Below, piece by piece: positions 1 to 33,774 of a stretch of DNA of 46,440 nucleotides (position 1 is the stretch's first letter; each line of letters opens with the position of its first letter). The notes beneath the pieces are model-generated. The model did not search any database, had not been told where the DNA came from, and worked only from the letters and a program-made list of their open reading frames with translations. The stretch is from sequence record NC_024784.1; one strand, given 5' to 3'. The stretch is from Escherichia phage vB_EcoS_AHS24. The position numbers were made by a program, and so were the translations under genes.

Positions 1-516
1 ATGTCAGAAGAGAAAAAGATTCACCAGAAGATTGGCAACTTCAAGGAGCTATACAATAAGAAGTATGGCGACATTGCCAATCTAAAGATTAACCACAGGT
101 ACACTCCTGAGCAGGTATTCGACATGGCCGTAAGGTATTTCAGCTGGGCTGAAGAGCAAGCGATTAAGGCCATTGAAACGGCGAGCTTTCAGGGTGTTGT
201 AACGGAAAACCTTGTTCATAAGCCACGAATATTTACGATAACTGGATTCCAACTTTTCTGCGGCGTTGGTCATAATGCCATCAGTAAATGGCGCTCTTCG
301 CCTGGATTTGATGAGGTGATGGAGTTTGTGGATTCGGTAATCTTTGAGCAGAAGTATCAGCTTGGCGTTAACAACATCGTCAACCCTGGACTGATTGGCA
401 AGGACTTAGGCATCGATAAGCCGCAAGAGGTTAACATCAACAATGCTTCCAATGCAGTAGTGAACGATGAGGAAGCTATGAAGGCTGCGCTTGAATCAAT
501 AGTTGATAAACTTTGA
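1..516 (+). CDS. terminase small subunit (putative)
   Basis: 171-aa ORF directly upstream of large terminase at start of packaging module; assigned by synteny; window end carries GGAGG RBS that would serve this ATG if genome is circular. Confidence 0.5.
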   Translation: MSEEKKIHQKIGNFKELYNKKYGDIANLKINHRYTPEQVFDMAVRYFSWAEEQAIKAIETASFQGVVTENLVHKPRIFTITGFQLFCGVGHNAISKWRSSPGFDEVMEFVDSVIFEQKYQLGVNNIVNPGLIGKDLGIDKPQEVNINNASNAVVNDEEAMKAALESIVDKL

Positions 517-532
517 TATGTTGATATAATTA

Positions 533-562
533 CCCCATTCAATAAACGAGTGGGGTTTTTTA
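533..562 (+). terminator. putative intrinsic terminator
   Basis: Imperfect hairpin CCCCATTC...GAGTGGGG followed by TTTTTTAT. Confidence 0.45.
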
Positions 563-1077
563 TGTTAGATAGAGCGAAGCCTATGCCGCCTCTGGATTTT
601 CTTAGAGGAATTCTGAGTTACAATCCTGAAACGGGAAAGCTAACGTGGACATCAAAAGTAAGTAGCAAAACCATAATCGGATCCGAGGCTGGGACTTTGC
701 ACAAAGCTAGCGGTCGATATCAAGTACAGATACAAGGGAAGATATACAAGAGCTCAAGGATTGCATTTTATTTGTATTATGGCTTTGAGCCAGTTGGCGC
801 GGTTGACCACATAAATCGTGACCCATCAGACGATAGGATTTCTAATCTTAGGGATGCATCGCTTAGCCAAAACGGAATGAATAAGTCTATGATGAGCAAT
901 AATACATCTGGCTACAAAGGTGTTAGCTACTCAAAGAGAAGGAATGAGTATATTGCATATGTGAAAATAAATGGAAAAATGATGTTTGGAGGTTGGTTTA
1001 AGAAAAAAGAAGAAGCAGCAAAGGTGGCGGCATCAATGAGAGAGAGTATACATGGGGAGTTCTGCAATCATGAGTGA
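562..1077 (+). CDS. HNH homing endonuclease (HNH + AP2-like domain)
   Basis: HINRDPSDDRISNLR HNH-type motif; paralogous to ORF 24664..25137; inserted between terminase subunits; ORF track start 550 is GTG, ATG at 562 preferred. Confidence 0.7.
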   Translation: MLDRAKPMPPLDFLRGILSYNPETGKLTWTSKVSSKTIIGSEAGTLHKASGRYQVQIQGKIYKSSRIAFYLYYGFEPVGAVDHINRDPSDDRISNLRDASLSQNGMNKSMMSNNTSGYKGVSYSKRRNEYIAYVKINGKMMFGGWFKKKEEAAKVAASMRESIHGEFCNHE

Positions 1078-2641
1078 AATAATTGTATGGGAAGACTTAA
1101 CATACCCAGAAAAGCTAGCTATAAAGGCACTATCAACTCATAGCTTCGAGGGTTTCTTAAGGGTGTGGTTTCAAATAAGTCAATCTGAGCGTTATATTCC
1201 TAACTGGCACCATAAGTACCTCTGTAGAATCATCGATGAGGTTATTAGCGGTCAACGCAGAGATACAATCATTAACGTAGCTCCCGGGGCCGGAAAAACC
1301 GAGATTACATCCATTCACTTCCCAGTATACTCAATGCTTAAACTAAAGAAGGTTCGCAATCTTAGCCTGTCATTCTCAGATAGCCTCGTGAAGCGTAACT
1401 CTAAACGGGTTCGTGACCTTATCAAATCGACAGAATTCCAGGAGTTGTGGCCCTGCAAGTTTGGCACATGTAAGGATGATGAGATTCAGGTTCTTGATGA
1501 TTCTGGTAAGGTTAAGTTTGAATCAATATCAAAAGCAATTGGCGGTCAGATTACAGGCGCTCGCGGTGGATATATTACAGATAACTATAGCGGCTGTTTG
1601 ATGCTTGATGATGTAGACAAAGCGGATGATATGTTCAGCAAAGTCAGGCGAGAGGCCGTGCACACTCTTCTCAAAAACACCATTCGCTCACGTAGGGCGA
1701 GTAGCGTTAAAGGTAAAGCTACGCCAATTCTGTCAATTCAGCAAAGGCTTCATACTCAGGATTCAACGTGGTTCATGACTTCTGGTGGTATGGGTATCGA
1801 CTTTGATGTAGTGAAGATACCGGCGCTGGTCACTGAAGAATATGTGAATGAACTCCCTGACTGGATTCGTGAGCAGTTCGAGAAGGACGTGCTTTCATCC
1901 GAGTACGTCGAGCGAGATGGTGTTAAGTATTACAGCTACTTCCCGCAGAAGGAATCTGTGCATGACTTGATGGCAATGTGGGACTCAGATCCGTACACAT
2001 TCCTAAGCCAGTACCAACAATCTCCAGTAGCTCTGGGTGGAAACCTGATCAACGTAGATTGGTTTGCTCGCCTCGATGAGAATAACAGGCCGCCAGTCAA
2101 GTATGACTACCGTTTCATTACGGCTGATACTGCCATGACCACTAAGAGTTATAGCGACTACTCAGTATTCCAGCTATGGGGGCGCAAAGATAACAGGCTT
2201 TATCTTCTGGATATGGTAAGGGGTAAATGGGAAGCACCTGAACTTGAGCAAACTCTTCTGGACTTTGAGAGTAAGCATAGAGCAGCTAGTAAGACAGATG
2301 GTATATTGCGCAAGGTTATTATCGAGAAGAAAGCGTCTGGAATAGGACTTATCCAGTCGGCGGGTCGGGTAATGCGAACTCCTATCGAGCCTTTCGTTCC
2401 AGATACAGATAAGTTAACCAGGGTGATGAGCGCACTGCCACAGATTAAAGCTGGTAACGTAGTTCTGCCTGACTCTGCGCCATGGCTTACCTCGCTATTA
2501 ACCGAGTTCTCGGCGTTCACTGCTGACGATTCTCATCCCCATGATGACATTGTGGATACGACAACAATGGCCATCAACTGTGAATTGAACTTGAGTGACG
2601 ATCCGAGAGCCCGCTTAATGAGGCTAGCTGGCGTTAAGTAA
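1052..2641 (+). CDS. terminase large subunit
   Basis: 529 aa; Walker A-like VAPGAGKTE; acidic nuclease-type C-terminus; alternative start ATG 1070 overlapping HNH stop. Confidence 0.85.
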   Translation: MGSSAIMSEIIVWEDLTYPEKLAIKALSTHSFEGFLRVWFQISQSERYIPNWHHKYLCRIIDEVISGQRRDTIINVAPGAGKTEITSIHFPVYSMLKLKKVRNLSLSFSDSLVKRNSKRVRDLIKSTEFQELWPCKFGTCKDDEIQVLDDSGKVKFESISKAIGGQITGARGGYITDNYSGCLMLDDVDKADDMFSKVRREAVHTLLKNTIRSRRASSVKGKATPILSIQQRLHTQDSTWFMTSGGMGIDFDVVKIPALVTEEYVNELPDWIREQFEKDVLSSEYVERDGVKYYSYFPQKESVHDLMAMWDSDPYTFLSQYQQSPVALGGNLINVDWFARLDENNRPPVKYDYRFITADTAMTTKSYSDYSVFQLWGRKDNRLYLLDMVRGKWEAPELEQTLLDFESKHRAASKTDGILRKVIIEKKASGIGLIQSAGRVMRTPIEPFVPDTDKLTRVMSALPQIKAGNVVLPDSAPWLTSLLTEFSAFTADDSHPHDDIVDTTTMAINCELNLSDDPRARLMRLAGVK

Positions 2642-2653
2642 TCATGATAAACT

Positions 2654-2677
2654 GCCCCTTACTCAGGGGCTTTTTTA
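2654..2677 (+). terminator. intrinsic terminator
   Basis: GCCCCT-tactc-AGGGGC + T6. Confidence 0.7.
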
Positions 2678-2690
2678 TTGGAGAAATTAC

Positions 2691-3965
2691 ATGGTAAAAG
2701 CAGACAGCTACGCAAACATCTTTCTTAGCGGGAGTGATGGTAGTGAGGTTTACGGAAAGTTTGGCAGCCTTGGCCTAACAGCGCCAGCGCAGCTTGAGCA
2801 ACTTTATGTCAGCAGCGCTCTGGTTCGTCGAATTATTGATATCGTTCCAGAGGTCGCACTTGGCGCAGGCTTTAGTATTGAAGGTATCGACGACGAAGGT
2901 GCTTTCTGGTCGCGATGGGATGATTTAGGCCTTTCAGATAACGTAATCGACGCACTAGCCTGGGCGAGACTATACGGTGGCGCTGCTGTAGTGGCAATTG
3001 TGAAGGATGGAAGGGCGCTAACCAGCCCGGTTCGTGAAGGTGCGGAACTTGAAACAGTTCGCGTATACGACCGTCAGCAAATTAAGGTCCAGACTCGCGA
3101 GGAGAATCCACGTAACGCGCGTTTTGGTAAGCCATTAACTTACCGCATCACGCCAAACGGGTCGGCAACGTTCTACGATGTGCACTATACACGCTGTCAC
3201 ATCATTGATGGCGAGCGAGTACCTAACAACCTACGTCGTAATAACGATGGCTGGGGCGCAAGCGTACTAACTGGTGACTTAATTGACGCGATTGACGACT
3301 ATCAGAACTGTGAGCGACTGGCTACTCAGTTACTTCGTCGTAAACAGCAGGCGGTGTGGAAAGCAAAAGGCCTTGCTGACTTATGTGATGATTCAGATGG
3401 ATTTGGAGCAGCTCGTTTACGTCTGGCTCAGGTGGATAATAACAGTGGCGTTGGTCAGGCTATCGGGATTGACGCGGATAGTGAAGAGTACAACGTTCTC
3501 AACTCAGATATTGGCGGTATTGATACATTTCTGAGTCAGAAGTTCGATCGAATCGTTGCTCTGAGCGGTATTCATGAGATTATCCTTAAGGGTAAGAATG
3601 TTGGTGGTGTGTCAGCAAGCCAGAACACTGCTCTAGAGACTTTCTACGGTTATGTTGACCGTAAGCGCAAGGCTGAATTATTGCCTCTGCTTGAGTTCCT
3701 GCTGCCGTTCATCGTAACCGAGCAAGAGTGGTCAGTAGAATTTAACCCTCTATCGCAGGTTAGTGACAAGGATAAATCTGAGATTCTTGAGAAGAACGTC
3801 AATTCAGTTGCCGCATTGATTGCAGCTGGAATCATTGACGCAGACGAAGCAAGAGATACGTTGCGCGCAATTTCAACTGAGGTTAAGATTGGCGAAGGCT
3901 CAATTCAAACGGAGGTTGTAATTAATGAATCAGAAGACCCGCTGGATGTATCCGCAAATAATTGA
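2691..3965 (+). CDS. portal protein
   Basis: 424 aa directly after terminase; GGAGA RBS; synteny. Confidence 0.75.
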   Translation: MVKADSYANIFLSGSDGSEVYGKFGSLGLTAPAQLEQLYVSSALVRRIIDIVPEVALGAGFSIEGIDDEGAFWSRWDDLGLSDNVIDALAWARLYGGAAVVAIVKDGRALTSPVREGAELETVRVYDRQQIKVQTREENPRNARFGKPLTYRITPNGSATFYDVHYTRCHIIDGERVPNNLRRNNDGWGASVLTGDLIDAIDDYQNCERLATQLLRRKQQAVWKAKGLADLCDDSDGFGAARLRLAQVDNNSGVGQAIGIDADSEEYNVLNSDIGGIDTFLSQKFDRIVALSGIHEIILKGKNVGGVSASQNTALETFYGYVDRKRKAELLPLLEFLLPFIVTEQEWSVEFNPLSQVSDKDKSEILEKNVNSVAALIAAGIIDADEARDTLRAISTEVKIGEGSIQTEVVINESEDPLDVSANN

Positions 3966-21020: not shown

Positions 21021-21992
21021 TTAGTAGAAGTTGGGAATAAATGGAAGTGCCATTGATATGTTTGTATCAAATGGGAATTGCGCGCCAGTTTGAGTTGAAT
21101 AGTTACCTATAACAGTGCCTGGGACGGCTCTAACTGAACCTCCAGACATGCAAACACCCTTGTATCGTAAGTTATTATATCCACCAGTGACTCTAGTTGT
21201 CGCTCCGCATCTAAGTATTGGGAAGAACCCACCATTCACCGACTGGTAACCATTATTAATCTGCATAAATCCACTTAGAACAAATGGCCTCCTGACGCTA
21301 GAGAAAACTATCTGCCCAGCGCTGTTTGATATCGTTAAACCCGGACCAGCTACTGGAGGTGTATTATTGAAAATAACTAACTGAACGTAAGTACTTGCAG
21401 CAACATCATCAATCCCATTGTATGTTATATCCCTACACCATATCGTACTACCATCACTTTCAAGGGATACGTTTGGGTTATCCCATTTACCAAAAGGAAT
21501 GCCGCCAACTGGCAATGATGCAGAGCCATTAACCTGAATGCCACCAACCCAAGCAGCAGTCATTAATCTGGAATTGCTTGATATCGCTGTAAAGTCAGTC
21601 GAGTTCTCAACAAGGACACCGGGGATTGATTGTGATGATGCTGGTAAAATCTCAAAGCACTGACCGCCAAACTGCAATATGCGACCATTAGCGCCGTTAA
21701 AGTTACTTAATGTAATCCTTCCAACCCCATCGTTAACCTTCGAGAACCCATTCATGTAATAAACTTCTGGTATAACATCATATGCATCAACATAAACAGC
21801 CTGAGTTGGCAGGCAGAATGCTGTTGAGCCAGGAGTCATAGTCAAACCGAAATCCCATGATGATGCTGGTGAGCTTAACCCGATAGTGTTTATTGAACCA
21901 GTCACGGCTGGAACTCTCAAGCCAGCTGTGATTTCCATTGCTGGCCTTCCGTCATTCAAATCTATCAAGATACCTTGAGGCATTATTTCCAC
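21021..21992 (-). CDS. receptor-binding protein (putative)
   Basis: 323 aa reverse-strand ORF downstream of J-like gene, translationally coupled to upstream lipoprotein gene. Confidence 0.45.
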
Positions 21993-22226
21993 TCCTTTGA
22001 GCCGTGATCTGCAACTGAGCCGCCGTAGCCTCCACCAACCTTTTGCTCAATACCAGCATAACGAATATCAACCTCTCCAGCTGGAACAACTACGCCACCC
22101 TTCCATTTAGCTACGCATACACCAGAGGCCTGAGTTGCACACCATCCGTCAGGTCGCGGGCCAGAAGAACAACCTACTGTCATGATTACTGCTGCTGCGA
22201 TGATTGCTGATTTGATGAAGTTAGTC
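21983..22226 (-). CDS. lipoprotein, putative superinfection-exclusion (Cor/Llp-like)
   Basis: Signal peptide [20 protein letters not shown] with Cys at lipobox position; 81 aa from ATG 22226 with AAGGAA RBS; ORF track extends to 22303. Confidence 0.55.
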
Positions 22227-22267
22227 ATTTTGTATTCCTTAGTAAGTATGTTTCGTTTCGATGGAGT

Positions 22268-22314
22268 AACTATAGCAAAGGCTGCCGCGGTAGTCTTTAG
22301 CAAATCGTGCTATT
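22268..22314 (-). promoter_or_regulatory. promoter cassette copy (minus strand)
   Basis: Minus-strand AAATAGCACGATTTGCTAAAG, 23-bp spacer, TATAGTTAC, leader TCCATCGAAACGAAAC; upstream of lipoprotein/RBP operon. Confidence 0.6.
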
Positions 22315-22380
22315 TGATATACGCGTAACCGATGTAACTCGATGTATACAATCTCATCCGCGGAAAATTATATACGCTTT

Positions 22381-22462
22381 TTACGCGCAGATACGCATTG
22401 GTTACATTTATAAATCCTTATATAATAAGGGTTTGGAGTATTATTATTATTATATATATTAC
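22381..22462. repeat. AT-rich element with (TTA)4 microsatellite, copy A
   Basis: GGTTACATTTATAAATCCTTATATAATAA...TTATTATTATTATATATAT; homologous to 42262..42342. Confidence 0.6.
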
Positions 22463-22667
22463 TATGTATATCTTGTAACTACTCTCTATAGCTATGTTGG
22501 TATGTTTTTCTAAAATACTATGTTTGATTTCCTGTTAAGGATTAAATGCATATAGATATAGATAGGGTGCAAATTTGGTGGATACATTAGTTACAAGAGT
22601 TACACTCAGCATCCATGCGGCGTGCGAAGTCTCAAAGCGTATTTGGGTGCGTTTTACACCGATATAC

Positions 22668-22714
22668 AAAATAGCACGAATAATCAAAACGTATACGACA
22701 TGATTGGGTATAGT
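22668..22714 (+). promoter_or_regulatory. promoter cassette copy (variant motif)
   Basis: AAATAGCACGAATAATCAAA + 22 bp + TATAGT; upstream of Rha-like gene. Confidence 0.5.
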
Positions 22715-22816: not shown

Positions 22817-23446
22817 ATGAATCTGATGAATATTGATGAAAACGTAACCATGAGTAGCCTTGAGATTGCTGAATTAACTGGAAAGGAACACTTTATAGTA
22901 CTAAGGGATATTAGGGATATGCTTAATAGGCAGTTTGGTGATGGAGGAGAATACAAATTTGTATCCTCCTACAAATCAAGCCAGAACAAGGATTTACCAA
23001 TGTATAACCTAAAATTCAGGGAAACGATGATTTTGATGGCTGGTTATAGCCAGGAAATTGCTGCCAGAATCATTGACCGCTGGCTTCACCTTGAGCGGGA
23101 GAACAAGTTACTCAAAGAGCACATGGCCAAGATGGTATCTTACGATCTGGTATTAAAAGAGAAGCAGCAAACCAACAAGGAGCTATCGGCACGCAATCGC
23201 GCCGAAGATGAGGTTTACAAGCTAGAGAAGATTATTTATAAGTATATTGATAAGGCTTCAAATGGTGAAGAGATTCACGATGAGCTTTATAAGGTTAAAT
23301 TTGAATCTAGCAGGCTCTTTGATGCTCTTGAGATGGTTTACTCATATCAATCTCAGTGTGAAATTCTTTGCCAGAAGTTAAACGACAAGGATGAGTTGAT
23401 CTCTAATCTGGTAGATAAGAATAGCGAGATTATTAAGTTGAAATAA
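22817..23446 (+). CDS. Rha-like phage regulatory protein
   Basis: N-terminal SSLEIAELTGKEHFIVLRDIRDML resembles Rha-family signature; coiled-coil C-terminus. Confidence 0.5.
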   Translation: MNLMNIDENVTMSSLEIAELTGKEHFIVLRDIRDMLNRQFGDGGEYKFVSSYKSSQNKDLPMYNLKFRETMILMAGYSQEIAARIIDRWLHLERENKLLKEHMAKMVSYDLVLKEKQQTNKELSARNRAEDEVYKLEKIIYKYIDKASNGEEIHDELYKVKFESSRLFDALEMVYSYQSQCEILCQKLNDKDELISNLVDKNSEIIKLK

Positions 23447-23519
23447 TAGGCAAAACCAATTGGATAAACTTAGCTACGGATGTCATAGTTAAACCACATA
23501 AACAGAGAGAGATAGAAAA

Positions 23520-23714
23520 ATGGCATACTTCATTATTCAAGAGCGAAATAACCCTATTTTCGGAACATGTTACTACTGTGTAGATGGCTCAGGTTACACA
23601 AGCAATAAATCAGAGGCAGCAAGATTTGAGACAAAGCAGGAAGCTATTGAATACGCCCACGTGACAGATGAGGAGCTTGGTTCAGTAATGAAGATTATTA
23701 AGGTGAAGGAATAA
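23520..23714 (+). CDS. hypothetical protein
   Basis: 64 aa ORF with RBS. Confidence 0.4.
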   Translation: MAYFIIQERNNPIFGTCYYCVDGSGYTSNKSEAARFETKQEAIEYAHVTDEELGSVMKIIKVKE

Positions 23715-23717
23715 ATC

Positions 23718-24677
23718 ATGAGCTTCAAGGTTTACACTAGCGACGAGTTAACCAACGAAGCCTACCACAAGGAGTCAGACCATGTGTCTGGCTCTGGTCT
23801 GGCTCACATCTTCTCAACTTGCCCCGCTGCTTATAAGTTTGCAGAGCATGATGATAGCAATAAGGCGTTAAAGTTCGGTACATTAGCCCACACGGTTATT
23901 CTTGAAAACTCTGTATTCGATGCGACTTACTATCGCCAGCCAGCGCAAGAAGAGTTTGAGGATCTGATTACTAGCAAGACTGCTTTGGCAACTCGGTTGA
24001 AGTCGATGGGTATTGCTGGAACATCTGGTAAGGATTATCCAGAATTAATGGAGATTCTGGCGCTGAGCGGTGAATCACTTAACGTATGGTGGGATATTCA
24101 GCGCTCTAGCGAGGTTAAAGCGAACGGTCGCGAGATTGTATCAGCTAAAGACTTTGACACAGTACATGCGATGCGAGAGGTGCTGTGTGGCATTCCTGCA
24201 TACAATGCGATAGTAAACAGCAAGACCGCTCAGCGAGAGTTATCAATTTTCGGTGAGATTAACGAGTGTGGTGTAAAGGTTCGTCTTGACCATGTTGACG
24301 TGGTTGATGATGTGGTTTATATACGAGATTATAAGACCACTAGCGACGCGTCTCCGTCTGGATTTGGGAGATTGGCATTAAAGCATGGCTACTTGCTAAA
24401 AATGTCCCTTCAACATGATTTGTTTGTTCGCGCCTTTGGTGAAAAACGTAAAGTTGTTGTACAGCTTCTTTGCCAGGAGAAGAAAAGCCCTTTCTTGCCA
24501 ATGTGCTACACGATAACTAAGGAGCAATTAAAGGTTGGTAGATTGCAGTATATGAGCGCGCTTTCTACGTACAAGCAATGCAAGAAACTTGATATTTGGC
24601 CTGGTTACGGATTTGGCGAAACAGAGATGGATTTGCAGATACCGGAATATGAGATGAAAAAATATGAATTGGCATGA
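23718..24677 (+). CDS. PD-(D/E)XK family recombination exonuclease
   Basis: VVYIRDYKTT D-x-K motif; sits directly upstream of Erf/SSB. Confidence 0.6.
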   Translation: MSFKVYTSDELTNEAYHKESDHVSGSGLAHIFSTCPAAYKFAEHDDSNKALKFGTLAHTVILENSVFDATYYRQPAQEEFEDLITSKTALATRLKSMGIAGTSGKDYPELMEILALSGESLNVWWDIQRSSEVKANGREIVSAKDFDTVHAMREVLCGIPAYNAIVNSKTAQRELSIFGEINECGVKVRLDHVDVVDDVVYIRDYKTTSDASPSGFGRLALKHGYLLKMSLQHDLFVRAFGEKRKVVVQLLCQEKKSPFLPMCYTITKEQLKVGRLQYMSALSTYKQCKKLDIWPGYGFGETEMDLQIPEYEMKKYELA

Positions 24678-25137
24678 TTGGTTTTATTACAGTGAAGGTT
24701 TAATATTTTGGAAGGTTAAGCCATCAAGAGTTATACGTGTCGGATGGGAGGCTGGAAGGGTCGAAAAGACAGGATACAAGAGAGTTGGTCTTGATAAGAA
24801 GATATACTTTGTGCACAGAGTTGTATGGGAGATGTTTAACGGACCAATACCGAAAGGAATGCAAGTCGATCATATAAATCATGATAATGGGGATGACAGA
24901 ATTGAAAACCTTAGACTTGTCACTTGCTCTGATAACAATAAAAATAAATCAATAGGCAAAAACTCAACAACTGGAGTTCAAGGTGTAACTTTTTGCAAAA
25001 GGATGAATAAATATAAAGCGTCAGTTAGGTGTGATGGTAAGTATTACCACTGTGGGTACTTTAACTCCTTGAGTGATGCTGCGGAATCAAGAAGGAATAA
25101 GCTGTTAGAGCTTGGATTTCATGAAAATCACGAATGA
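24664..25137 (+). CDS. HNH homing endonuclease (HNH + AP2-like domain)
   Basis: VDHINHDNGDDRIENLR motif; paralog of 562..1077; inserted between exonuclease and Erf. Confidence 0.75.
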   Translation: MNWHDWFYYSEGLIFWKVKPSRVIRVGWEAGRVEKTGYKRVGLDKKIYFVHRVVWEMFNGPIPKGMQVDHINHDNGDDRIENLRLVTCSDNNKNKSIGKNSTTGVQGVTFCKRMNKYKASVRCDGKYYHCGYFNSLSDAAESRRNKLLELGFHENHE

Positions 25138-25182
25138 TATAGCACGAATAGCTAAAACAAGATTAAATAGGTGAGGTATAGT
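25137..25182 (+). promoter_or_regulatory. promoter cassette copy
   Basis: ATATAGCACGAATAGCTAAA + 22 bp + TATAGTTAC + leader ATCGACAACGAGAGG; upstream of Erf/SSB. Confidence 0.6.
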
Positions 25183-25209
25183 TACCTAATCGACAACGAG
25201 AGGAAAAGT

Positions 25210-25860
25210 ATGAATACCAGCGATAAAAACACAAACGTTTTAAAGGCTCTATTTGAGGCCAAGAGCAAGTTTGCGAAGGCTGAAAAGTCCAAGCAGAACT
25301 CGCACCTTAAAAACAAATACGCAACCCTTGATGACGTTCTGGCGGCTGTAGAGCCAGGTTTAGAAGATAGCGGGCTAGTAATGTTCCAGAGTATGCTGGA
25401 ATCTGAAGCTGCAAATCAGATTAAGGTTGAGACTAAGATTTACCATGCTGAGTCTGCTGAATGGGTTTCTTTCCTTACTATCGTTCCTCTGTCTAAAAAT
25501 GATTGCCAAGGGACTGGCTCATCATTAACGTACGCTAGACGCTACGCCATTACGGCAGCCCTCGGCCTTAGCCAGGCTGATGATGATGGCAACCTGGCAG
25601 TCAAGAGTGTAAAAGACTGGAAGCGCGAAGTAGAGAAGGCAGAGACTCGAGATGAACTCGTAGAGGTTTACAAGGCTTGCAAATCACAAGCAGATGCCGC
25701 AACTTGGGGTATCGTGGAGAAATATATTATCGATAAGCAAGCCGAGATTAAGATGGCTTCTGCAAGTGGATTCAACCCAGCAAAACCAAAAGAAGTAACT
25801 AAAGTTGTTGCAAATGCAACGAATGAAGCTGTAGAATCACAATCAATCGAGCAGTTCTAA
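25210..25860 (+). CDS. erf: Erf-family single-strand annealing protein
   Basis: 216 aa from ATG 25210; N-terminal region typical of ERF family; ORF track start 25171 is GTG inside leader. Confidence 0.65.
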   Translation: MNTSDKNTNVLKALFEAKSKFAKAEKSKQNSHLKNKYATLDDVLAAVEPGLEDSGLVMFQSMLESEAANQIKVETKIYHAESAEWVSFLTIVPLSKNDCQGTGSSLTYARRYAITAALGLSQADDDGNLAVKSVKDWKREVEKAETRDELVEVYKACKSQADAATWGIVEKYIIDKQAEIKMASASGFNPAKPKEVTKVVANATNEAVESQSIEQF

Positions 25861-25907
25861 ATTAAAAGGTGCTTCGGCAACATAATCAAACGAGAAGAGA
25901 GAATAAT

Positions 25908-26330
25908 ATGCACGTAATTACAGGTCAGATTCGTAAAGCCCCTTTCACTAAAGACGGTCAGAATGCTAAAGGTAACTGGAAGATGTACGCTATCGAAATG
26001 AGCGAATCTTACAAGACAAAAGACGGCGAGCGCAAGTATACGAATTACCGAATTACACTTTTTGCTAGTGAGGCTCAGATTAGTTGGTATGACGAAGCAT
26101 TTCAGGAAGGAAAAGTTATCTCTGTGAGCGGCGATTCATTAGCGGTTAATGAGCGCGAACATAATGGCAAGACATATATTACGCTTGAGTTGCAGAATCC
26201 TCGATTGATGTTTAGTCAGCGAGGAGGTGAATCAGAAAAGCAGCAGCAGCGACAACAAGCTCAACAGCAACAAAGACAGCAGCCGCAGCAACAAAGCCGA
26301 TTTAGTGATGAAGAGGATATTCCGTTTTAA
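25908..26330 (+). CDS. ssb: single-stranded DNA-binding protein
   Basis: OB-fold-like N-terminus, Gln-rich linker, acidic C-terminal tail DEEDIPF. Confidence 0.8.
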   Translation: MHVITGQIRKAPFTKDGQNAKGNWKMYAIEMSESYKTKDGERKYTNYRITLFASEAQISWYDEAFQEGKVISVSGDSLAVNEREHNGKTYITLELQNPRLMFSQRGGESEKQQQRQQAQQQQRQQPQQQSRFSDEEDIPF

Positions 26331-26340
26331 TGCAAAAGAT

Positions 26341-26364
26341 AAAGCCCCTTTCGGGGCTTTTTTA
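26341..26364. terminator. bidirectional intrinsic terminator
   Basis: AAAGCCCC-tttc-GGGGCTTT between convergent SSB and tail fibre genes; same core as 20997..21020. Confidence 0.7.
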
Positions 26365-29079
26365 TTGTGACGTTACATCACCATTCAAACTCAAAAATAC
26401 TGATTGTTTTGTCAAATCAACACCACCTTTAAGCGAATAGTATCTTGAAGCGCAATAATCAGACTCATCTGAATAGCTGCCAACGTAAACACCAAAGCCA
26501 TATCCAGAGCAAGCTACATCACCAGCGCCTTGACCTGAATACATGGTTACATAGTTACCGGCTGTTGTTAGTATAGGTCTGACATCAATATCTATATACT
26601 GAGAATCAAATGACCTTCTAACTCTAAATCCAGTATTCAGGTTTAAGATGCTCCACCAAACCTTACCAGATACATCAAAACCAAGAGCAATATTGTAAGT
26701 ACCACCGTTGACCATTCTTGATGAGACTGGCAACACACCTGATAAAACTCTTGTTTCACCTGATGCTGATATTAACAATGAGACACTGTGTTCTCCTGAT
26801 GCCATCACGTTATACTGCAAGTAAAGAGCATTACTATTAACCCCAAAACCAGTCCCTATAGCCATAAGGTTAAAGTCTTCAGCAACAGTTATGGTCGGCG
26901 ATATATTGCATGTAGCGGTGAAACCTAGTGACGGGTCAAATCCAGTGCATATAATCTTATCTTTATTTGCCTGTGAAAGCCTTAGCCAATATTGCTGCCC
27001 AACTGATGATGCTGCTGCGGCGAATACTGGTGTATTAGAGACCCCATCAAAAGCTGAAGTGTCGTTTGCTGGCTTAATTCTTGTCTTCCTTTTGTCTATC
27101 AGTCCGTTTATCTTCAGGTTTCCTGAATACTCAGCAACATAGTTAGTGTCCCCTGAGAAATTTGGGCCAAAGTAACCAGATTCAACAACCCCATCGATCA
27201 CAACATCAGATCTTGAGTCAAGGAATCTGAAGTTGCCAGCGGAAGTTGGCCTTCCATCGCCATTGTTAGATACATAGTTAAGCCCAACAAAACCATAGAT
27301 TCTTACAGAGCTATTTGAAAACGAAACGTTATAATCTCTGTAGTTTGAGTTTATGCTGTTCCTGTTACTATTTAATCCATTAAATACCACATTTCTAGAG
27401 TTTACAATTCTAACACCGTCACCACCGCAATCCTGCGCCTCTATAGCTGACATGGTGATGTTTTGGCAGTTATCAATCAGGATGCCATAAGCATCATCAA
27501 GCTCATTATAAGCCGACCAACCCGACCAAATAAACTTACCGCCAACAATCCTACAGTTTCCGGCATTCCTAAGTATTAGACAATTTCTTCCACAGGTGTT
27601 TACCTGTATGTTATTCCATGTGAAGTCTGTTGTTTCGTTAATCAATCCGTCTTTTTTTATGTGCTGAATAAGAACATCATCAAGAACAGGAGAGTAGTTA
27701 CCAGCAGCAACGAAAATTCCGTAAACATCAAACCCAGCAATGTGAGTGTTTCTTATCGTTAAGTCCCTTCTAGGGTCAGCACCAGTGTTGAATGGGTAAT
27801 TGGTTGATAACCCAGTCGGAGTAGGGATGTAAATCCCAGCAGTACCATCAGTAAACGCCGTGTCTTGCTGGGCTCCAGTGCCGTAAAGAGCAATACCTTC
27901 AATATGAATGAGCGAGCAAGAATCAGAAACCTCAATTAAAGAGCCAATTGATGAACTAAGCTGAGTTATTCTTGACTTGTGCTTGCCAAAACCAATTATA
28001 GAGCAAGATTTATTTCTCATTACCAGGTTTGATGCCATGTAGTCGCTATCAAGCTTTAATGCCAGCCCGGAGTCTAGGATTTGCTGTATCTGTGTCGTTG
28101 AGTCTGATGTCGATGACTTAATGGCCCCAAGTTCGCAAGGCGACAGCTCCCCGCTACAGATTCTTTCCCAGTAATAACCGGTACTTGATTCAAAAACCAA
28201 TCCTGAAGATAATCCATATGATAAAGATGACTCCGGCTTACAAACAAAGAACCCACCACCATAACCAAGACCACCAATGTAAGAATCACAATAGACAACC
28301 TCTAAGTCATAAATTCTGGCAGAGTTTGTCATTGCTGATACTGATTCAAACCTTCTTGTGTAATCCTGTTGAATCCAAAAACCAACTCCAATACCACCTG
28401 TAGACTGTGGTGATGAGTTTTGTGGTATGGATTTTGGAACGCTACCAGACCAGTAATAAACCGAAACATGATTGTCATTAAAGTAAATTGCAGGCTGAGT
28501 TCTTGAGTTTATTTCTCCACCATTTGAGAAATCAACTACAAGAGCAGATGACACAGAAGCCGCAGCAGAGCTTGCTATTGTAGCTGAAGAGGAAGCCGAG
28601 TTAGCGCTACTTTCAGCTAACTGCCTATCAGAAGATACCTGATCTTTGTCAGAAGAAACTTGAGCAGCATCAACAGCAACTTGCTGAGATTGCATGTTGA
28701 CATTATTTACGCTTTGCTGGAAAGAATCAGAATCAAATTGATTAAAAGCATCAACTGCCGCTGCAACCTCTGTTTCACGGGACTGATAATAACGAAGTGT
28801 CTCAGCAACGTCCTGAGCAAGACCTTGGACAGTAATTCCGTCATGAGCAAGGATTGAGTACTGAGTCCCAGCTGGCGCAGTAAAACCTTTATCATTGAAT
28901 ACACGAATCTCTGTATCGCTTAAAATCTCAGCGATAGTAACAATGCTTGTCGGGGTGGTGTTAAAAATCATTGTTGCGCCAACTCGGATTAGTGTTAGTG
29001 GTTGCCTCCACGTGGTGCCAACACCAGTTACAGTTCCGTCAGCTGCAAGCGATGCAGTTCCAGCGTCATAAATTGCCAT
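26362..29079 (-). CDS. tail fibre protein
   Basis: 905 aa reverse-strand ORF with AGGAGA RBS; Ser/Ala-rich linker and long Gly/Asn/Ser/Thr-rich repetitive region. Confidence 0.7.
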   Translation of the reverse strand: MAIYDAGTASLAADGTVTGVGTTWRQPLTLIRVGATMIFNTTPTSIVTIAEILSDTEIRVFNDKGFTAPAGTQYSILAHDGITVQGLAQDVAETLRYYQSRETEVAAAVDAFNQFDSDSFQQSVNNVNMQSQQVAVDAAQVSSDKDQVSSDRQLAESSANSASSSATIASSAAASVSSALVVDFSNGGEINSRTQPAIYFNDNHVSVYYWSGSVPKSIPQNSSPQSTGGIGVGFWIQQDYTRRFESVSAMTNSARIYDLEVVYCDSYIGGLGYGGGFFVCKPESSLSYGLSSGLVFESSTGYYWERICSGELSPCELGAIKSSTSDSTTQIQQILDSGLALKLDSDYMASNLVMRNKSCSIIGFGKHKSRITQLSSSIGSLIEVSDSCSLIHIEGIALYGTGAQQDTAFTDGTAGIYIPTPTGLSTNYPFNTGADPRRDLTIRNTHIAGFDVYGIFVAAGNYSPVLDDVLIQHIKKDGLINETTDFTWNNIQVNTCGRNCLILRNAGNCRIVGGKFIWSGWSAYNELDDAYGILIDNCQNITMSAIEAQDCGGDGVRIVNSRNVVFNGLNSNRNSINSNYRDYNVSFSNSSVRIYGFVGLNYVSNNGDGRPTSAGNFRFLDSRSDVVIDGVVESGYFGPNFSGDTNYVAEYSGNLKINGLIDKRKTRIKPANDTSAFDGVSNTPVFAAAASSVGQQYWLRLSQANKDKIICTGFDPSLGFTATCNISPTITVAEDFNLMAIGTGFGVNSNALYLQYNVMASGEHSVSLLISASGETRVLSGVLPVSSRMVNGGTYNIALGFDVSGKVWWSILNLNTGFRVRRSFDSQYIDIDVRPILTTAGNYVTMYSGQGAGDVACSGYGFGVYVGSYSDESDYCASRYYSLKGGVDLTKQSVFLSLNGDVTSQ

Positions 29080-29131
29080 GTTATTTCTCCTATTTGATAG
29101 ATGAAACCTATTGTATCAGATTAAATGCAAT

Positions 29132-29152
29132 AAAAAACCCTCCGAAGAGGGT
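29132..29152 (-). terminator. intrinsic terminator (minus strand)
   Basis: Minus-strand ACCCTC-ttcg-GAGGGT + T6 after primase gene. Confidence 0.7.
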
Positions 29153-29157
29153 GATTG

Positions 29158-30081
29158 CTATGAATGCTTATCTATCAGATCTTGCGGGTTATATAACCTT
29201 CTTTCAAGCCCCATCTTGAAATTGCCACCTTTAGGTATTACGACTTTTAGACCTCTATCATCAGCAACATAAAGCGACTCCTTTTCATCAGCTAAGCAAG
29301 CTATCCTGCACTCTTTATTCCTGAGTTCATAAGCAACCATTTCTAAGTTGTGGTGAGTTAGGCAGTCGTAAGTTGTCCTTTTTGTGCATGCCGATACATG
29401 TAGTGCGTTAATCCAGCCAACAGTGAGGTAGATAGCGCCATCACTACATTTACTTACCGGAACAACCGAGCCGCGAGTGTAGTCTTTTGCGAGATATGAC
29501 TCATTACCCTCTTCATCTATAAACTTTACGTTACAAGGCTCATCTGATAAACCATCCTCGTAAACCATAAAGCATTGCTCGGCTATAATTTCTTCTCCAG
29601 ACCCCTTTATTCCTATTTTGTATTCCCGTTCAGTAATAATTGCTTCAAATCTCGTAAGCTGTGTCATTTCTACAGACTTGGTGCGAGACATTACCTTCTC
29701 GATTGATTCAATGGATGCCTGAGCGCCAAAGTTATATCTCTGAACTCGGCTCGCTGCTTTGTTTGCCTTCACTATGATTTCGACGGGAGTCAAATTAAGC
29801 CAGTCGCCAAGTAAATTTATAGCTTCCGCAAATCTAAGGCCGGAACATTTCATAACCCATCCTATTCCTGAGTCACTTCCGCACTTAGAGCAAACTGCGG
29901 CCCCATTACCTTTTTCGCTTCCTATTTCGTCTGTAAACCTGAATCTGTCAGTACCAAAGCAATAAGGGCACGGCCCGTGCTTCTTGCTAAGGTGTCTATC
30001 ATTCCAACCAAGCTCCTTTGCATAAAATGATTTCCACAATCCAGCCATTTTAGGTATTACTTCATTCTTGTCGTAATTCAT
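29158..30081 (-). CDS. DNA primase (zinc-ribbon + TOPRIM)
   Basis: CPYC...CSKC zinc-binding motif at N-terminus; acidic TOPRIM-like C-terminal half. Confidence 0.65.
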   Translation of the reverse strand: MNYDKNEVIPKMAGLWKSFYAKELGWNDRHLSKKHGPCPYCFGTDRFRFTDEIGSEKGNGAAVCSKCGSDSGIGWVMKCSGLRFAEAINLLGDWLNLTPVEIIVKANKAASRVQRYNFGAQASIESIEKVMSRTKSVEMTQLTRFEAIITEREYKIGIKGSGEEIIAEQCFMVYEDGLSDEPCNVKFIDEEGNESYLAKDYTRGSVVPVSKCSDGAIYLTVGWINALHVSACTKRTTYDCLTHHNLEMVAYELRNKECRIACLADEKESLYVADDRGLKVVIPKGGNFKMGLERRLYNPQDLIDKHS

Positions 30082-30133
30082 TTTTATTTAATCCAATAAA
30101 AAGGTTGTACCGATTATGGCACAACCTTAATTT

Positions 30134-30607
30134 TTACTCTTTAGCTTTTCGTGCTTCTTCTCTTTCTTTCTTAACCTTTCGCCATGATTTACGCTGCGGC
30201 TTGGTTGCTAACTCAGCTTCTGTAACAACTCGAAGCATCTGACGCTTCTTGCATCGCAGTGTTAGAGGCTTGCCGTTACCGTCGAACTGTAAATCAGGTC
30301 GGCAGAATGTAGCCCTGAACCCCTCGCCAGTTCGCTTATATCGATTATGCGCAAGCTGTGCGCCGCGAGCTGAAATCATTCCCCGCTTACACCATTCTTC
30401 TACAGCCTGGCGCGTAACCTTTAGCTGCTTAGCTAGATTGGCCTTGCTGCCGTAGAAGTCCAAGACAATCTCAAGGCGCGCCCTTAATCCTGCTCTCACC
30501 TCATCCTTTAGTACATAGTAACCTGATGGACGCTTACGCGGCTTCTTGTCTTCTGTGCGAATTGTTCCGTTGTTACCATTAAGAGTACGCTTGTCAATTG
30601 AATCCAT
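30134..30607 (-). CDS. HTH DNA-binding protein (putative transcriptional regulator)
   Basis: LAKQLKVTRQAVEEW helix-turn-helix-like segment; basic C-terminus. Confidence 0.5.
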   Translation of the reverse strand: MDSIDKRTLNGNNGTIRTEDKKPRKRPSGYYVLKDEVRAGLRARLEIVLDFYGSKANLAKQLKVTRQAVEEWCKRGMISARGAQLAHNRYKRTGEGFRATFCRPDLQFDGNGKPLTLRCKKRQMLRVVTEAELATKPQRKSWRKVKKEREEARKAKE

Positions 30608-30617
30608 TTTCTCACCT

Positions 30618-30663
30618 CAATAGCACTTTTTGTTAAACATTGGTTTAGATGGCTGTTATTATA
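30618..30663 (+). promoter_or_regulatory. promoter cassette copy (T-rich variant)
   Basis: AATAGCACTTTTTGTTAAA + 21 bp + TATTAT + leader TCAATCGAACGAACA; upstream of helicase. Confidence 0.55.
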
Positions 30664-32643
30664 TCGTCAATCGAACGAACATTAAAGGCATTTGATATTA
30701 TGGAAAACCGATTGAAAACAATACAAAAACAGATTGAAGAATTGGGCGAAGATAAGATTAAAGAGATTCAAACTAAATTCACCTCTTCTAACGGTATGGT
30801 TCCGTATAGCTATCAGTGTGTTATGTACAATGAGATTGCAAAGCGCATTAGTCGCTATGAGCATCCATTTATCGCAATGGCTTCAGTTTCTGCTGGTAAG
30901 ACTCTGGTTTTTGGTATGGTTGCTAAGCGTTGCTCTGAGCTTGGCTTGCCTATGCTTGTTCTTGCTCGTCAGGCAGAGCTGGTTAGCCAGAATGCTTCTG
31001 AGATTTCTGATTACGGGGTTCCTAACTCCATTTATTGCTCTGGGCTTGGAATAAAATCATCTTATTTCCCTGTGGTGGTTGGCTCTGAGGGCACAGTAGT
31101 TGGCGGGCTTAAGAAGTCACTTGGCGATTTCTGTCCTGCGGTAGTTGCTATTGATGAGTGTCACCATATTGATGACCAGGACATAGCGGAGGCAATTGAT
31201 AACAATGAGACTGCGCAACAGGCATCAGATAAGGGGCGTAGCCAGTATACGGTCATCATCCTGACTTTAATGGAGCGCTGCCGTGCTAAGTATGGCAAGA
31301 ATCTTCGTATCTTTGGACTGACTGGTTCTCCTTTCCGTGGAACTACGCCAATAGTTGTTGAAAACAAAAAGGAGTTGGGATTTTGGCGTGAGACGGTCAC
31401 AAATATCGATACAAACTACCTGGTCGAGTTCGGTTCCGTGGTTCCGACAAACTTTGGTGCTACTGATGGCGTTGGTTACGACCTGTCAGAGTTTGATGCA
31501 TCATCTGAAGATGGTGTTCAGGATTACACTAAAGCCCAGCTTGAAGCCATGGATAAAAAGATTCAGGCATCTGGAACAATGACAGCGGAGATAATGAAGA
31601 AAGTATGGCTTGCCGCGAAAAACAGGAATGGAGTTCTGGTAACATGCGCAGGTGAGCGCCATTGCCACGAAGCCGCAAGTTACCTTCCTGAAGGTGAAAA
31701 GTTCTGCATTATAACTGGAAAGACTGGCGAGAAGCAGCGCAAGGAGTTGCTTGATAAGTGCTTTAGCGGGGAGATTAAATATTGCTTTCAGGTTCAGGCG
31801 CTAACCACTGGCGTAAATGTGCCTACATGGGATACAAGCGTTATTCTGCGTAAGATTGGTAGCCTTACGCTCCTGGTTCAGCTACTTGGTCGAGGAATGC
31901 GTAAGCTTAAGAAGCTCCATGAAGATAAAGGAATGGTCAAGAATGACCATTTGGTACTGGACTTCGCAGGAACGATGGACTCTATGGCATCATTGTACTT
32001 CAATCCAATTCTTGAGCAGGCTCAATATCAGCTACGAAAGAGTAATGGCAAGGAGACTAAGCAGTGTCCAGTATGCGGAACAGAGAACAGCTTCTTTGCT
32101 CGACGTTGCATGCATATTGATGAGAATAATAATCGCTGCGAATATTTCTGGGTTAGTCGCACATGTGAAGACCAGAAAGACCCACGAACCGGAAAGGTTA
32201 TCGTTAAAGGCTGCGGAGTTCAGAATGACGTTGCAGCTAAGATTTGTAGGGGTTGCGATTGCACTTTGCTTGATCCAAATCTCAACTTAAGCGGCAAACA
32301 TTACCGCAAGAACGACTGGTTTGATGTTGTTGACTTTAAGGTTGGGCTAACAAAGAACCAATCAGGAATCATCTACAACTACATCCTTGATGATGGCATG
32401 GGTGGGACATTCAAAGCTCATGAGGTTTTCTTTGTAGAGTCTGACCATCGAGTATGTAAAACGCTCTGGTTGAACAATGGAATTAAAGGTCACGTAGTCG
32501 ACATGAACGCTAAGCGATATATGGCTGCATATCGCAATGCTCGCAAGATTATGGAGTATGCGCAGTACATCCATGCTCCTAAGAGGGTAACTCACCGCAA
32601 GACCGCTAAAGGTGGCGATAATATTGCTAATAAGGAGTTCTAA
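30649..32643 (+). CDS. SF2 DNA helicase
   Basis: Walker A SVSAGKTLVF; motif II IDECHH; C-terminal Cys-rich zinc-finger region; possible true start ATG 30700. Confidence 0.8.
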   Translation: MAVIISSIERTLKAFDIMENRLKTIQKQIEELGEDKIKEIQTKFTSSNGMVPYSYQCVMYNEIAKRISRYEHPFIAMASVSAGKTLVFGMVAKRCSELGLPMLVLARQAELVSQNASEISDYGVPNSIYCSGLGIKSSYFPVVVGSEGTVVGGLKKSLGDFCPAVVAIDECHHIDDQDIAEAIDNNETAQQASDKGRSQYTVIILTLMERCRAKYGKNLRIFGLTGSPFRGTTPIVVENKKELGFWRETVTNIDTNYLVEFGSVVPTNFGATDGVGYDLSEFDASSEDGVQDYTKAQLEAMDKKIQASGTMTAEIMKKVWLAAKNRNGVLVTCAGERHCHEAASYLPEGEKFCIITGKTGEKQRKELLDKCFSGEIKYCFQVQALTTGVNVPTWDTSVILRKIGSLTLLVQLLGRGMRKLKKLHEDKGMVKNDHLVLDFAGTMDSMASLYFNPILEQAQYQLRKSNGKETKQCPVCGTENSFFARRCMHIDENNNRCEYFWVSRTCEDQKDPRTGKVIVKGCGVQNDVAAKICRGCDCTLLDPNLNLSGKHYRKNDWFDVVDFKVGLTKNQSGIIYNYILDDGMGGTFKAHEVFFVESDHRVCKTLWLNNGIKGHVVDMNAKRYMAAYRNARKIMEYAQYIHAPKRVTHRKTAKGGDNIANKEF

Positions 32644-33032
32644 TGGTTAAGGTTTTTCACGACAAAACAAGCACGGACAAGGCTAAAGAGGTTGTTCACC
32701 AAATAAATTCAATAGCTTGGGTTCGCCACAACCATCCAGAGATATTTGCTTTTCACGTGAAGAATGAAGGTCTCAAGTCTATCGGCACAGCAATGAAGGA
32801 CAAGCAGGAGGGAGTAATTAAGGGTGTATCAGATATTCTACTGATTGGACCAAATGGCTTTGCCGCAATAGAGCTTAAGCGAGCAATAAAATCAGATAGC
32901 AAGGTTTCAAAGGAGCAAAAGGAGTTCCTGGAAAAGGTATCAGAAACAGGAGGTTACGCGGCAATCTGTTATGGGTTTGAAATGTTTAAGTTGGCAATTA
33001 CAGATTATCTATCAAATAGCACGAATTGCTAA
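32643..33032 (+). CDS. VRR-NUC domain nuclease
   Basis: D...IELK-type nuclease core (DILLIGPNGFAAIELKRA); last codons STNC-stop are encoded by the promoter motif. Confidence 0.55.
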   Translation: MVKVFHDKTSTDKAKEVVHQINSIAWVRHNHPEIFAFHVKNEGLKSIGTAMKDKQEGVIKGVSDILLIGPNGFAAIELKRAIKSDSKVSKEQKEFLEKVSETGGYAAICYGFEMFKLAITDYLSNSTNC

Positions 33033-33059
33033 AGAGATTTCGCAAGGATGCGATATAGT
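33014..33059 (+). promoter_or_regulatory. promoter cassette copy
   Basis: AAATAGCACGAATTGCTAAA + 22 bp + TATAGTTAC + TTCATCGAAACGAAGAGAG; motif also encodes VRR-NUC C-terminus. Confidence 0.65.
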
Positions 33060-33090
33060 TACTTCATCGAAACGAAGAGAGAGAAACAAA

Positions 33091-33285
33091 ATGACTACTA
33101 TCTACACTGAAAAGCTGTACAAGTCACGCAAAACTAGTTATGAATATGAATTAGCAATCACCCCTGAGGGTTATATTCTTGATGATGGAGACGGTTACTC
33201 ATTCGAAGTTAGCCCAACATACAAAGATGATTTAGAGACTGTTAAAAACGCATTCGGCGAAAAATTTGATGAGGTGTCAGAATAA
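33091..33285 (+). CDS. hypothetical protein
   Basis: 64 aa from ATG 33091 downstream of cassette leader. Confidence 0.5.
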   Translation: MTTIYTEKLYKSRKTSYEYELAITPEGYILDDGDGYSFEVSPTYKDDLETVKNAFGEKFDEVSE

Positions 33286-33503
33286 TGAAATTAACCTTTG
33301 ATAAGCAATGGGAACTCTTTCAGGCAATGGTGGCGCAGGAGTTGAGTAAAGCTGGATATAAAAATGATGTTTGGGATTTAGCTTGGTGTCTTGATTATAG
33401 TTTCGAAGAGGATTATCTGAACACTGATATCGAAACATGGCGCGACCGAATGATTGCTGATATCGAAGAAATGAAGAAAGATTGCCCGGAGGATTTTTCA
33501 TGA
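33285..33503 (+). CDS. hypothetical protein
   Basis: 72 aa, ATGA-coupled start. Confidence 0.5.
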   Translation: MKLTFDKQWELFQAMVAQELSKAGYKNDVWDLAWCLDYSFEEDYLNTDIETWRDRMIADIEEMKKDCPEDFS

Positions 33504-33744: not shown

Positions 33745-33774
33745 AATTACATCAGCAAATGAGAGGGTTAAGAG

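Follow-up and report, generated by a model that had tools for sequence, protein, structure and literature searches.

Two homologous AT-rich elements at divergent junctions of the T1-like phage vB_EcoS_AHS24 as candidate replication origins or early control sites

The Bacillus phage SPP1 has two homologous origins, oriL and oriR, tens of kb apart in a pac-type siphovirus genome of ~45 kb; each consists of short repeats for one origin-binding protein (G38P) beside an AT-rich segment, and oriL lies within the initiator gene. In the origins of staphylococcal pathogenicity islands (SaPI), SV40 and the papillomaviruses, repeats of 5-8 bp, partly inverted, flank an AT-rich segment of ~70-80 bp that is melted by a helicase with its own DNA-binding domain; protein binding to these origins has been demonstrated, and they are found either next to the rep gene or within a defined control region. 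Phage lambda controls leftward and rightward early transcription from two homologous regions, OL and OR, through the same regulator, which acts on 17-bp palindromic operators over strong promoters. At oriF and oriG of T4 and at the primary origin of T7, a promoter is coupled to a nearby AT-rich unwinding element and transcription helps to open or prime the origin; such origins depend on a defined promoter placed directly ahead of that element. The classic T phages number seven and include T1, relatives of which are often met in the laboratory, in fermentation and in phage therapy. Here, we describe two homologous AT-rich non-coding elements, copy A and copy B, in the T1-like phage vB_EcoS_AHS24 (Rogunavirus, Drexlerviridae; record NC_024784.1), whose complete genome of 46,440 bp is the window referred to throughout.

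The pair appears to be undescribed in the literature that we searched, in which the only repeat described for T1-like genomes is a promoter-associated one of 21 nt, and which yielded no usable transcription-start, origin or RNA sequencing data for the T1 family. The work on TLS (PMC11447400) found no iteron-type repeats, and neither it nor the SU57 paper found an origin. The paired elements of AHS24 are real, conserved non-coding sequences of ~160 bp each, and, judged by their repeat-flanked and easily melted cores, they are the strongest candidates to date for where the family starts replication or exerts shared early control.

An initial annotation of the genome had placed two homologous AT-rich stretches, about 70 bp in the same orientation, in two divergent control regions. 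The positions and the shared orientation proved correct, and the homology is well founded. Local alignment of 22300-22520 with 42180-42400 gave a score of 67, compared with 19.1 ± 2.5 (maximum 29) in 500 shuffles, an excess of ~19 standard deviations (SD). Across the whole genome, with both strands considered, the top non-self match of copy A is copy B, and the exact composite pattern GGTTACA-N10-CTTATATAA is present at 22400 and 42274 and nowhere else. The length of ~70 bp was an underestimate, as an nhmmer profile built from 21 related copies matches the window exactly twice and covers both elements in full (Table 1). Chance likeness of AT-rich DNA is ruled out by the shuffles, the genome-wide scan and the profile.

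At window sizes of both 60 and 100 bp, the two highest A+T contents of the genome (56% A+T overall) belong to the cores of the two elements. Over 60 bp, the copy B core reaches 87% A+T, the highest value in the genome, followed by the copy A core with 85%. The copy B core is also the least stable 50-bp duplex window (-46.5 kcal/mol, against a genome mean of -67.2 ± 4.2); the copy A core ranks second by this measure (-47.9 kcal/mol) and first among 80-bp windows, so that both lie ~4.6-4.9 SD from the genome mean. The cores are rich in TpA steps, and (TTA)≥3 is found nowhere in the genome outside the two copies, which carry, as initially reported, tracts of four (A) and six (B) units. Both cores therefore have the composition of the AT-rich unwinding element of an iteron-type origin. 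The layout of a DnaA-trio origin, a DnaA box beside a trinucleotide array, is not seen: the bottom strand of the tract does read (TAA)n, but the ~200 bp around either tract are free of DnaA boxes (TTWTNCACA, up to one mismatch). Dam sites (GATC) are absent from both intergenic regions. Neither core contains a perfect IHF consensus, and just two matches with one mismatch were found, both in copy B (42282 and 42297). Among the roles proposed at the outset, those of an origin and of a promoter or regulatory site are viable and are strengthened by the family-wide conservation described below, while that of an IHF site within the cores is not upheld. A structured RNA or DNA hairpin was also considered and rejected, with fold z-scores of -0.4 to -0.9 that are no better than those of shuffles and with a tRNA as the only Rfam match.

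The two copies share the same order of parts. From left to right, the palindrome ACGCGT is accompanied by two or three repeats of the GTAAC/GTTAT type; next come (T)ACGC in three direct repeats and a GGTTACA box, then the core (~70 bp, with CTTATATAA, TTTA, (ATT)n and (AT)n) and an inverted GTAAC box. About 110 bp beyond the inverted box stand three further G/A-T-TAC-A/G repeats with a period of 9-10 bp, and in most of the related copies comparable triple xTAC(A/G) repeats occupy the equivalent aligned place. The three direct repeats are helically phased, as in an iteron-type origin, with units of only 4-6 bp; the second triple repeat of both copies lies 110-130 bp to the right.

The elements are conserved well beyond AHS24. 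BLAST matched copy A to 64 phage records and copy B to 36. With a single exception, labelled Pseudomonas, these records carry the names of enterobacterial hosts, and wherever taxonomy was checked the phage belonged to the Drexlerviridae. AHP24 is 99.9-100% identical to AHS24 in the regions tested. Alignments of 16-21 copies from Rogunavirinae, Braunvirinae and Nouzillyvirus revealed invariant or nearly invariant blocks (TAC.[CT]GT.A, GTGTA.A, TACG(C) three times, GTTACA, TATATA..AA and TT), and the 13 nt ATTATTATTATTA, the (ATT)4 tract, are invariant in 20 of 21 copies, the remaining one (Opt-79) having a single substitution. The geometry is equally rigid. Counted from GTTACA, the ACGC repeats start at -8, -18 and -27/28, the start of the ATT tract falls at +37 to +42 and the GTA of the right arm at +71 to +75 in all 21 copies, although the number of ATT units varies from 3 to 7. 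Since the distance from box to box is 71-75 bp whatever the ATT count, extra units replace neighbouring AT sequence and do not lengthen the element. The AHS24 cores are 74-83% identical to those of Rtp, compared with an average of 71.9% over alignable, mostly coding DNA, and the spacers to the right of the cores cannot be aligned between AHS24 and Rtp.

The positions of the pair are conserved as well. In Rtp, TLS and T1, it occupies the matching two junctions, one between cor and recE and the other at the genome start, and the two AT-richest windows of T1 (226 and 30016) and of Rtp (226 and 28091) are found there. T1 and TLS each have a mutually homologous pair of their own (scores of 66 against 21 ± 3 and of 63 against 21.9 ± 2.6 in shuffles, respectively), and with these included a homologous pair spans four subfamilies. 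Weak colinear profile matches tie both TLS copies and copy B of T1 to the AHS24 type. The flanking repeats are lineage-specific, namely TACGC/GTTACA in AHS24, RTTACR in T1 (ATTACGCC twice, GATTAACAC three times and GTGTAACAG three times) and GTGAACA(G) in TLS, whose elements (L052 755-1110, L053 100-520) have GTGAACA(G)/TGTTCAC repeats on their flanks. Such lineage specificity would be expected if the initiator and its repeats evolve together.

The two copies of Rtp are 74% identical to each other, while copy B of Rtp is 56% identical to copy B of AHS24; copy B of TH27 is 85% identical to that of AHS24 across subfamily lines; and AHP42 (L050 330-700) and e4/1c (L051 360-730) carry a third variant of copy B, with the same AT core and (ATT)4 and different flanking boxes. 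Taken together, these comparisons indicate conversion between copies, exchange of B modules among phages, or both. In addition, similarity among Rogunavirus genomes ends just to the left of copy B (~42176-42210), which suggests that this element marks a module-exchange boundary. A source in the host or in plasmids was ruled out by the lack of any match in 5,426 E. coli genomes and 72,556 plasmids. A mobile element, an attP and a telomere site were likewise rejected, since the synteny of the elements is maintained throughout the family and no integrase, transposase or protelomerase is annotated in the T1-like records.

A pattern scan of IMG/VR for more relatives returned mostly chance matches, plus phiEB49 and phiKP26. 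Among the chance matches was an unrelated, non-homologous contig family (L007 ~2200-2400; also L008, L009, L016, L021, L022, L024 and L026) in which an AT-rich stretch separates several GGTTACG repeats from inverted CCGTAACC repeats. By eye, this layout lies directly downstream of an open reading frame (ORF) whose C-terminal translation we take to resemble an XRE-type repressor.

Both elements lie, as the initial annotation had stated, between divergently transcribed blocks. Genes run rightward over 1-20990, after which the strand alternates block by block (Table 1). Copy A has a lipoprotein gene on its left and the Rha and recE genes on its right, and copy B has small early genes on its left and a DUF7174 gene on its right. 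Each copy sits in a gap of 350-540 bp; because the flanking operons have promoters of their own, the elements occupy the space between back-to-back promoters, and neither is the proximal promoter of any flanking operon. A third divergent junction (30607-30649) has a gap of only 42 bp and no such element. Elsewhere in the genome, a tRNA gene at 45859-45931 (+; Rfam, 58.8 bits) fits the arginyl-tRNA reported for these phages, and short tandem repeats (TGGCCCACAAGGACCGCAAGG and variants, 6730-6786) within the ORF 6392-6844 would encode collagen-like GPQ/GPR triplets.

Table 1. Coordinates of the two elements, their parts and their surroundings in the AHS24 genome.
Feature	Position	Strand	Remarks
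Copy A, full conserved element	22317..22484	+	nhmmer profile, E 4e-45
Copy A, left block	22320..22348	+	palindrome TACGCGTA at 22320-22327, read from sequence
Copy A, left-block repeats	GTAAC 22325, GTAAC 22334, GTATA 22344	+	9-10 bp period
Copy A, three direct TACGC repeats	22373..22396 (22373, 22382, 22392)	+	9-10 bp phasing
Copy A, GGTTACA box, left arm	22400..22406	+	pattern search; GTTACA (near-)invariant in alignment
Copy A, AT-rich core	22407..22473		CCTTATATAATAAGG 22416-22430, TTTGGA 22432-22437, (ATT)4A 22440-22452, ATATATTACTATGTATATC
Copy A, inverted box TGTAAC (minus-strand GTTACA)	22474..22479	-	74 bp from left box
Copy A, right-hand cluster GATACA, GTTACA, GTTACA	22581..22604 (22581, 22590, 22599)	+	9-bp period
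Copy B, full conserved element	42201..42355	+	nhmmer profile, E 1.7e-33
Copy B, left-block counterpart	42202-42232		GTACGCGTTA...GTGTAGA
Copy B, three direct (T)ACGC repeats	42247..42270 (42247, 42257, 42266)	+	phasing as in copy A
Copy B, GGTTACA box, left arm	42274..42280	+	pattern search; alignment
Copy B, AT-rich core	42281..42346		CTTATATAAC 42291-42300, TTTAGA 42306-42311, (ATT)6A 42315-42333, TATATG
Copy B, inverted box GTAACC	42347..42352	-	72 bp from left box
Copy B, right-hand cluster TTAACA, ATAACG, ATAACA	42450..42474 (42450, 42460, 42469)	+	
Leftward promoter unit, T1-family 21-nt-repeat type	22260..22314	-	bounds copy A gap; repeat families D4, D5, D7
Rightward promoter unit, 21-nt-repeat type	22669..22714	+	bounds copy A gap; repeat family D3
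Leftward promoter unit, 21-nt-repeat type	41955..42009	-	bounds copy B gap; repeat families D4, D5, D7
Sigma-70-like site	42551-42578		right side of copy B gap
Putative pac zone beside copy B, outside the repeat	42012..42166	+	T1 and Rtp record starts and MSK terminus map here
Gene blocks	21021-22303, 22817-26330, 26362-30607	-, +, -	
Gene blocks, continued	30649-37773, 37787-41935, 42609 to end	+, -, +	

Our favoured explanation, to which we give somewhat less than an even chance, is that each element is a repeat-flanked DNA-unwinding element and that the two copies are twin origins, or an origin and its cis-acting partner. It builds on the anatomy, rigid geometry, family-wide conservation and duplex instability of the elements and on the presence of a helicase and a primase in the genome, from which we infer protein binding, melting and initiation at the elements. 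A sequence-specific phage protein would occupy the short repeats, with three ACGC and GTTACA on the left and the inverted GTAAC exactly seven helical turns away, and the same protein would sit on the three TAC(A/G)-type repeats ~110 bp further right. The 9-10 bp phasing of the repeats would place the bound proteins on one face of the helix, where they could bend or wrap the DNA. Divergent transcription from the flanking promoters would drive negative supercoils into the gap, and the bound protein and the supercoiling together would open the core, ~70 bp of 85-87% A+T and the genome's least stable duplex. An MCM-like AAA+ helicase (38127-39716) and a P4-alpha-type primase (29158-30081) would be loaded at the opened core, and the host polymerase would extend.

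A primase zinc ribbon is present in the 307-amino-acid primase, which is a homologue of the P4 alpha primase domain (E 4e-14). The helicase is a DUF3987 protein of 529 amino acids encoded on the minus strand and annotated as 'DNA helicase'; its structure model (predicted local distance difference test score, pLDDT, 89) has MCM-family AAA+ helicases as top structural matches (probability 1.0, E 1e-5) and a C-terminal winged helix (residues ~453-529) with the order helix-strand-helix-helix-strand-strand. Sequence searches with the helicase and with a Cro/YdaS-like helix-turn-helix (HTH) protein of 157 amino acids encoded at 30134-30607, itself below Pfam thresholds, gave no match among solved structures. 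Candidates for the initiator that would bind the repeats are this HTH protein and the MCM-like helicase through its winged helix. The Rha regulator was rejected as the common binding protein, as its gene is missing beside copy A in T1 and Rtp.

A bolder version, which we consider improbable, is that the copies are twin origins of a previously unrecognised type, in which (ATT)≥4 would be a landing pad with a three-nucleotide register for single-stranded DNA binding by the MCM-like AAA+ helicase. The (TAA)n strand would then parallel bacterial DnaA-trios, except that it would work for the phage-encoded helicase, whose winged-helix domain would read the TACGC/GTTACA boxes. The copies might pair physically as P4 ori and crr do, and initiator and repeat specificity would have coevolved separately in each lineage of the Drexlerviridae.

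Several observations weigh against an origin function. The repeats, at 4-6 bp, are below the length of classical iterons, and the elements stand away from the replication genes, the nearest being the helicase gene at 2.5 kb and the primase gene at ~7 kb. Two equal origins in a genome of 46 kb would be unusual. No homologue of the helicase or the DNA-binding part of P4 alpha was detected. GC skew, tried as an origin indicator, was rejected because it tracks the gene strand and carries no replication signal. Finally, 13 of 16 copies have a promoter-like site at a conserved position, so that a transcriptional role fits the same sequence.

That role is the core of the main alternative, which we consider possible and somewhat less probable than the origin: the elements would form a shared early regulatory hub, with the cores as sigma-70 promoters, possibly bidirectional, and the surrounding repeats as operators for one regulator. 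The candidate regulator is again the Cro/YdaS-like HTH protein, which would act as a joint switch of the two early regions, in the manner of lambda repressor and Cro at OL and OR, and the (ATT)n tract would be a spacer, a -10 element or both. The conserved site is a rightward TTTAGA/TTTACT-N17/18-TATATT/TATTAT of 7.5-10 bits with a predicted start at ~+66 from GTTACA, and the TTTA of its -35 is nearly invariant; A-type copies have an additional leftward TTACAA-N18-TATAAT. The TTGGTT-17-TATAAT of copy A reached 11.9 bits on a sigma-70 weight matrix (genome rank 15). The annotators of AHP24 and AHP42 predicted promoters in the region of the elements, the location heads four early-looking operons, and the inverted boxes at ~-66 and ~+8 of the predicted start could serve as looping operators. 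However, scores of 8-10 bits are common (153 sites in the genome exceed 9 bits) and are expected in DNA of 85% A+T, and a simple consensus scan of the copy A region found one promoter-like site against 3.5 in shuffles. The best sigma-70 site of copy A has no counterpart in copy B (<5 bits), each flanking operon already has a promoter nearer its gene, and a promoter spacer needs no invariant 13-nt sequence. The case for the strong early promoter proposed initially is weaker than supposed: no canonical sigma-70 site is evident in both copies, and what is positionally conserved is the weaker one. In T1 and TLS, the cores score ≤9 bits and the strong early promoters lie 200-250 bp to the right of them (30319-30346 at 14.6 bits and 449-477 at 12.7 bits in T1; P01 and P51 in TLS), so that a promoter role is not what all members of the family share. 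For the AHS24 elements a transcriptional role is possible, and such a role and an origin are not mutually exclusive.

The remaining explanations fare less well. We think it unlikely that the cores are architectural elements that bind H-NS, Fis, HU or IHF, or absorb supercoils and insulate the divergent promoters, with no dedicated phage protein. The extreme A+T content, the many TpA steps, the placement between divergent promoters and the lack of significant single-strand structure would all suit such a function, but it needs neither an invariant (ATT)4 nor invariant GC-containing boxes (TACGC three times, GTTACA, ACGCGT) at fixed spacing in 21 of 21 copies; moreover, the cores lack a perfect IHF consensus, and the third divergent junction works with its 42-bp gap and no element. 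It is very improbable that copy B, and by homology copy A, is a pac site recognised by terminase, even though many T1-like records start 190-350 bp from copy B and the pac end of T1 falls in the same intergenic region. Position 1 of the T1 record (terminal repeat 1..2800) is ~200 bp to the left of its core, the Rtp record starts at about window position 42068, and the PhageTerm terminus of phage MSK (36,862; PMC8421802) is ~107 bp to the left of the MSK copy B. With termini 100-200 bp to the left of copy B in all three phages, we rejected the element itself as pac. The zone to the left of copy B has motifs of its own that are missing from copy A, and a second site 20 kb away would give packaged molecules that are not reported. 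This putative pac zone contains AGATTTAT, GATTGTTGC / ATTGCGATGATT / GATTGCAATGATT / GATTGATGGATTGATGG and, at 42154, the perfect IHF consensus TATCAACTAGTTG; AGATTTAT is the P22-pac-like core proposed for the TLS pac (PMC11447400). Equally hard to credit is a phase-variable microsatellite, suggested initially from the unequal tracts, in which slippage of the TTA tract would toggle a neighbouring function. Unit numbers do differ, 4 against 6 between the copies and 3-7 across lineages. Nevertheless, at least 11 records from different countries, each ≥98% identical to A or B, show no indels along 121 aligned bp, and the near-invariance of (ATT)4 and the fixed length from box to box, whatever the unit count, do not fit slippage. 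These comparisons show the tract to be a constrained functional sequence and not a slippage-prone switch.

The promoter units that bound the gaps belong to a separate repeat system. The 21-nt intergenic repeat aaATAGCACnnnTTGnTAAAA has been described for TLS (PMC11447400), and AHS24 has at least 15 copies, on the plus strand at 15105, 22671, 25139, 30622, 33016, 33701, 34387, 35939, 43668 and 44511 and on the minus strand at 22295, 30139, 39995, 40193, 41155, 41990 and 42506. Each sits in a conserved unit of ~55 nt that ends in GGATG-N3-4-TATAGT...CATCGAAACGA, in which TTGCTA, ~23 bp from TATAGT, is too distant to serve as an ordinary -35. The only TLS genes with a canonical sigma-70 promoter ahead of them are gp01, recE and that of the HTH regulator, and for this reason the HTH protein (30134-30607) may activate the 21-nt-repeat promoters.

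The pair provides precise, testable candidates of ~160 bp each for the start of replication or for early control in this phage family. If the elements are origins, they would yield predictions for marker-frequency analysis, phage-dependent replicons and a means of engineering T1-like vectors. If they are operators instead, the family's early switch would be exposed.

Of the systems compared, those nearest to the proposed origins are SPP1 oriL/oriR and the origins of SaPI and of viral initiator helicases, and P4 ori/crr offers another parallel. Like lambda, it has two homologous control regions and encodes a Cro/YdaS-like HTH protein, but its repeats are of 5-6 bp and mostly direct, and its promoter matches are weak. 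Unlike at the T4 and T7 origins, the clear promoters of AHS24 point away from the core on both sides. The 21-nt repeat of the T1 family differs from the elements in its sequence and in its number, at least 15 copies, and points along transcription just upstream of genes, whereas the elements are two and lie between such repeats. According to the annotation of the P4 record, P4 ori and crr are also two cis elements several kb apart, with short repeats phased at ~10 bp beside AT-rich DNA, and T1-like primases, that of AHS24 among them, are homologous to the P4 alpha primase domain. In TLS only, a flanking repeat, GTGAACAG, nearly matches the P4 type-1 repeat TGTTCACC (P4 record); the AHS24 repeats are TACGC/GTTACA and not TGTTCACC, and its helicase is MCM-like, with no detected counterpart of the P4 alpha helicase or DNA-binding part. 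As in the origins served by initiator-helicases of SaPI and of the eukaryotic viruses, the AHS24 repeats are partly inverted and flank an AT-rich core, and the SaPI5 primase-helicase is a weak fold match of the AHS24 helicase (probability 0.54). Although neither AHS24 copy lies in or beside a replication gene, unlike SPP1 oriL, the arrangement is shared with SPP1: two separate, homologous elements, each made of repeats and AT-rich DNA, in the genome of a pac-type siphovirus.

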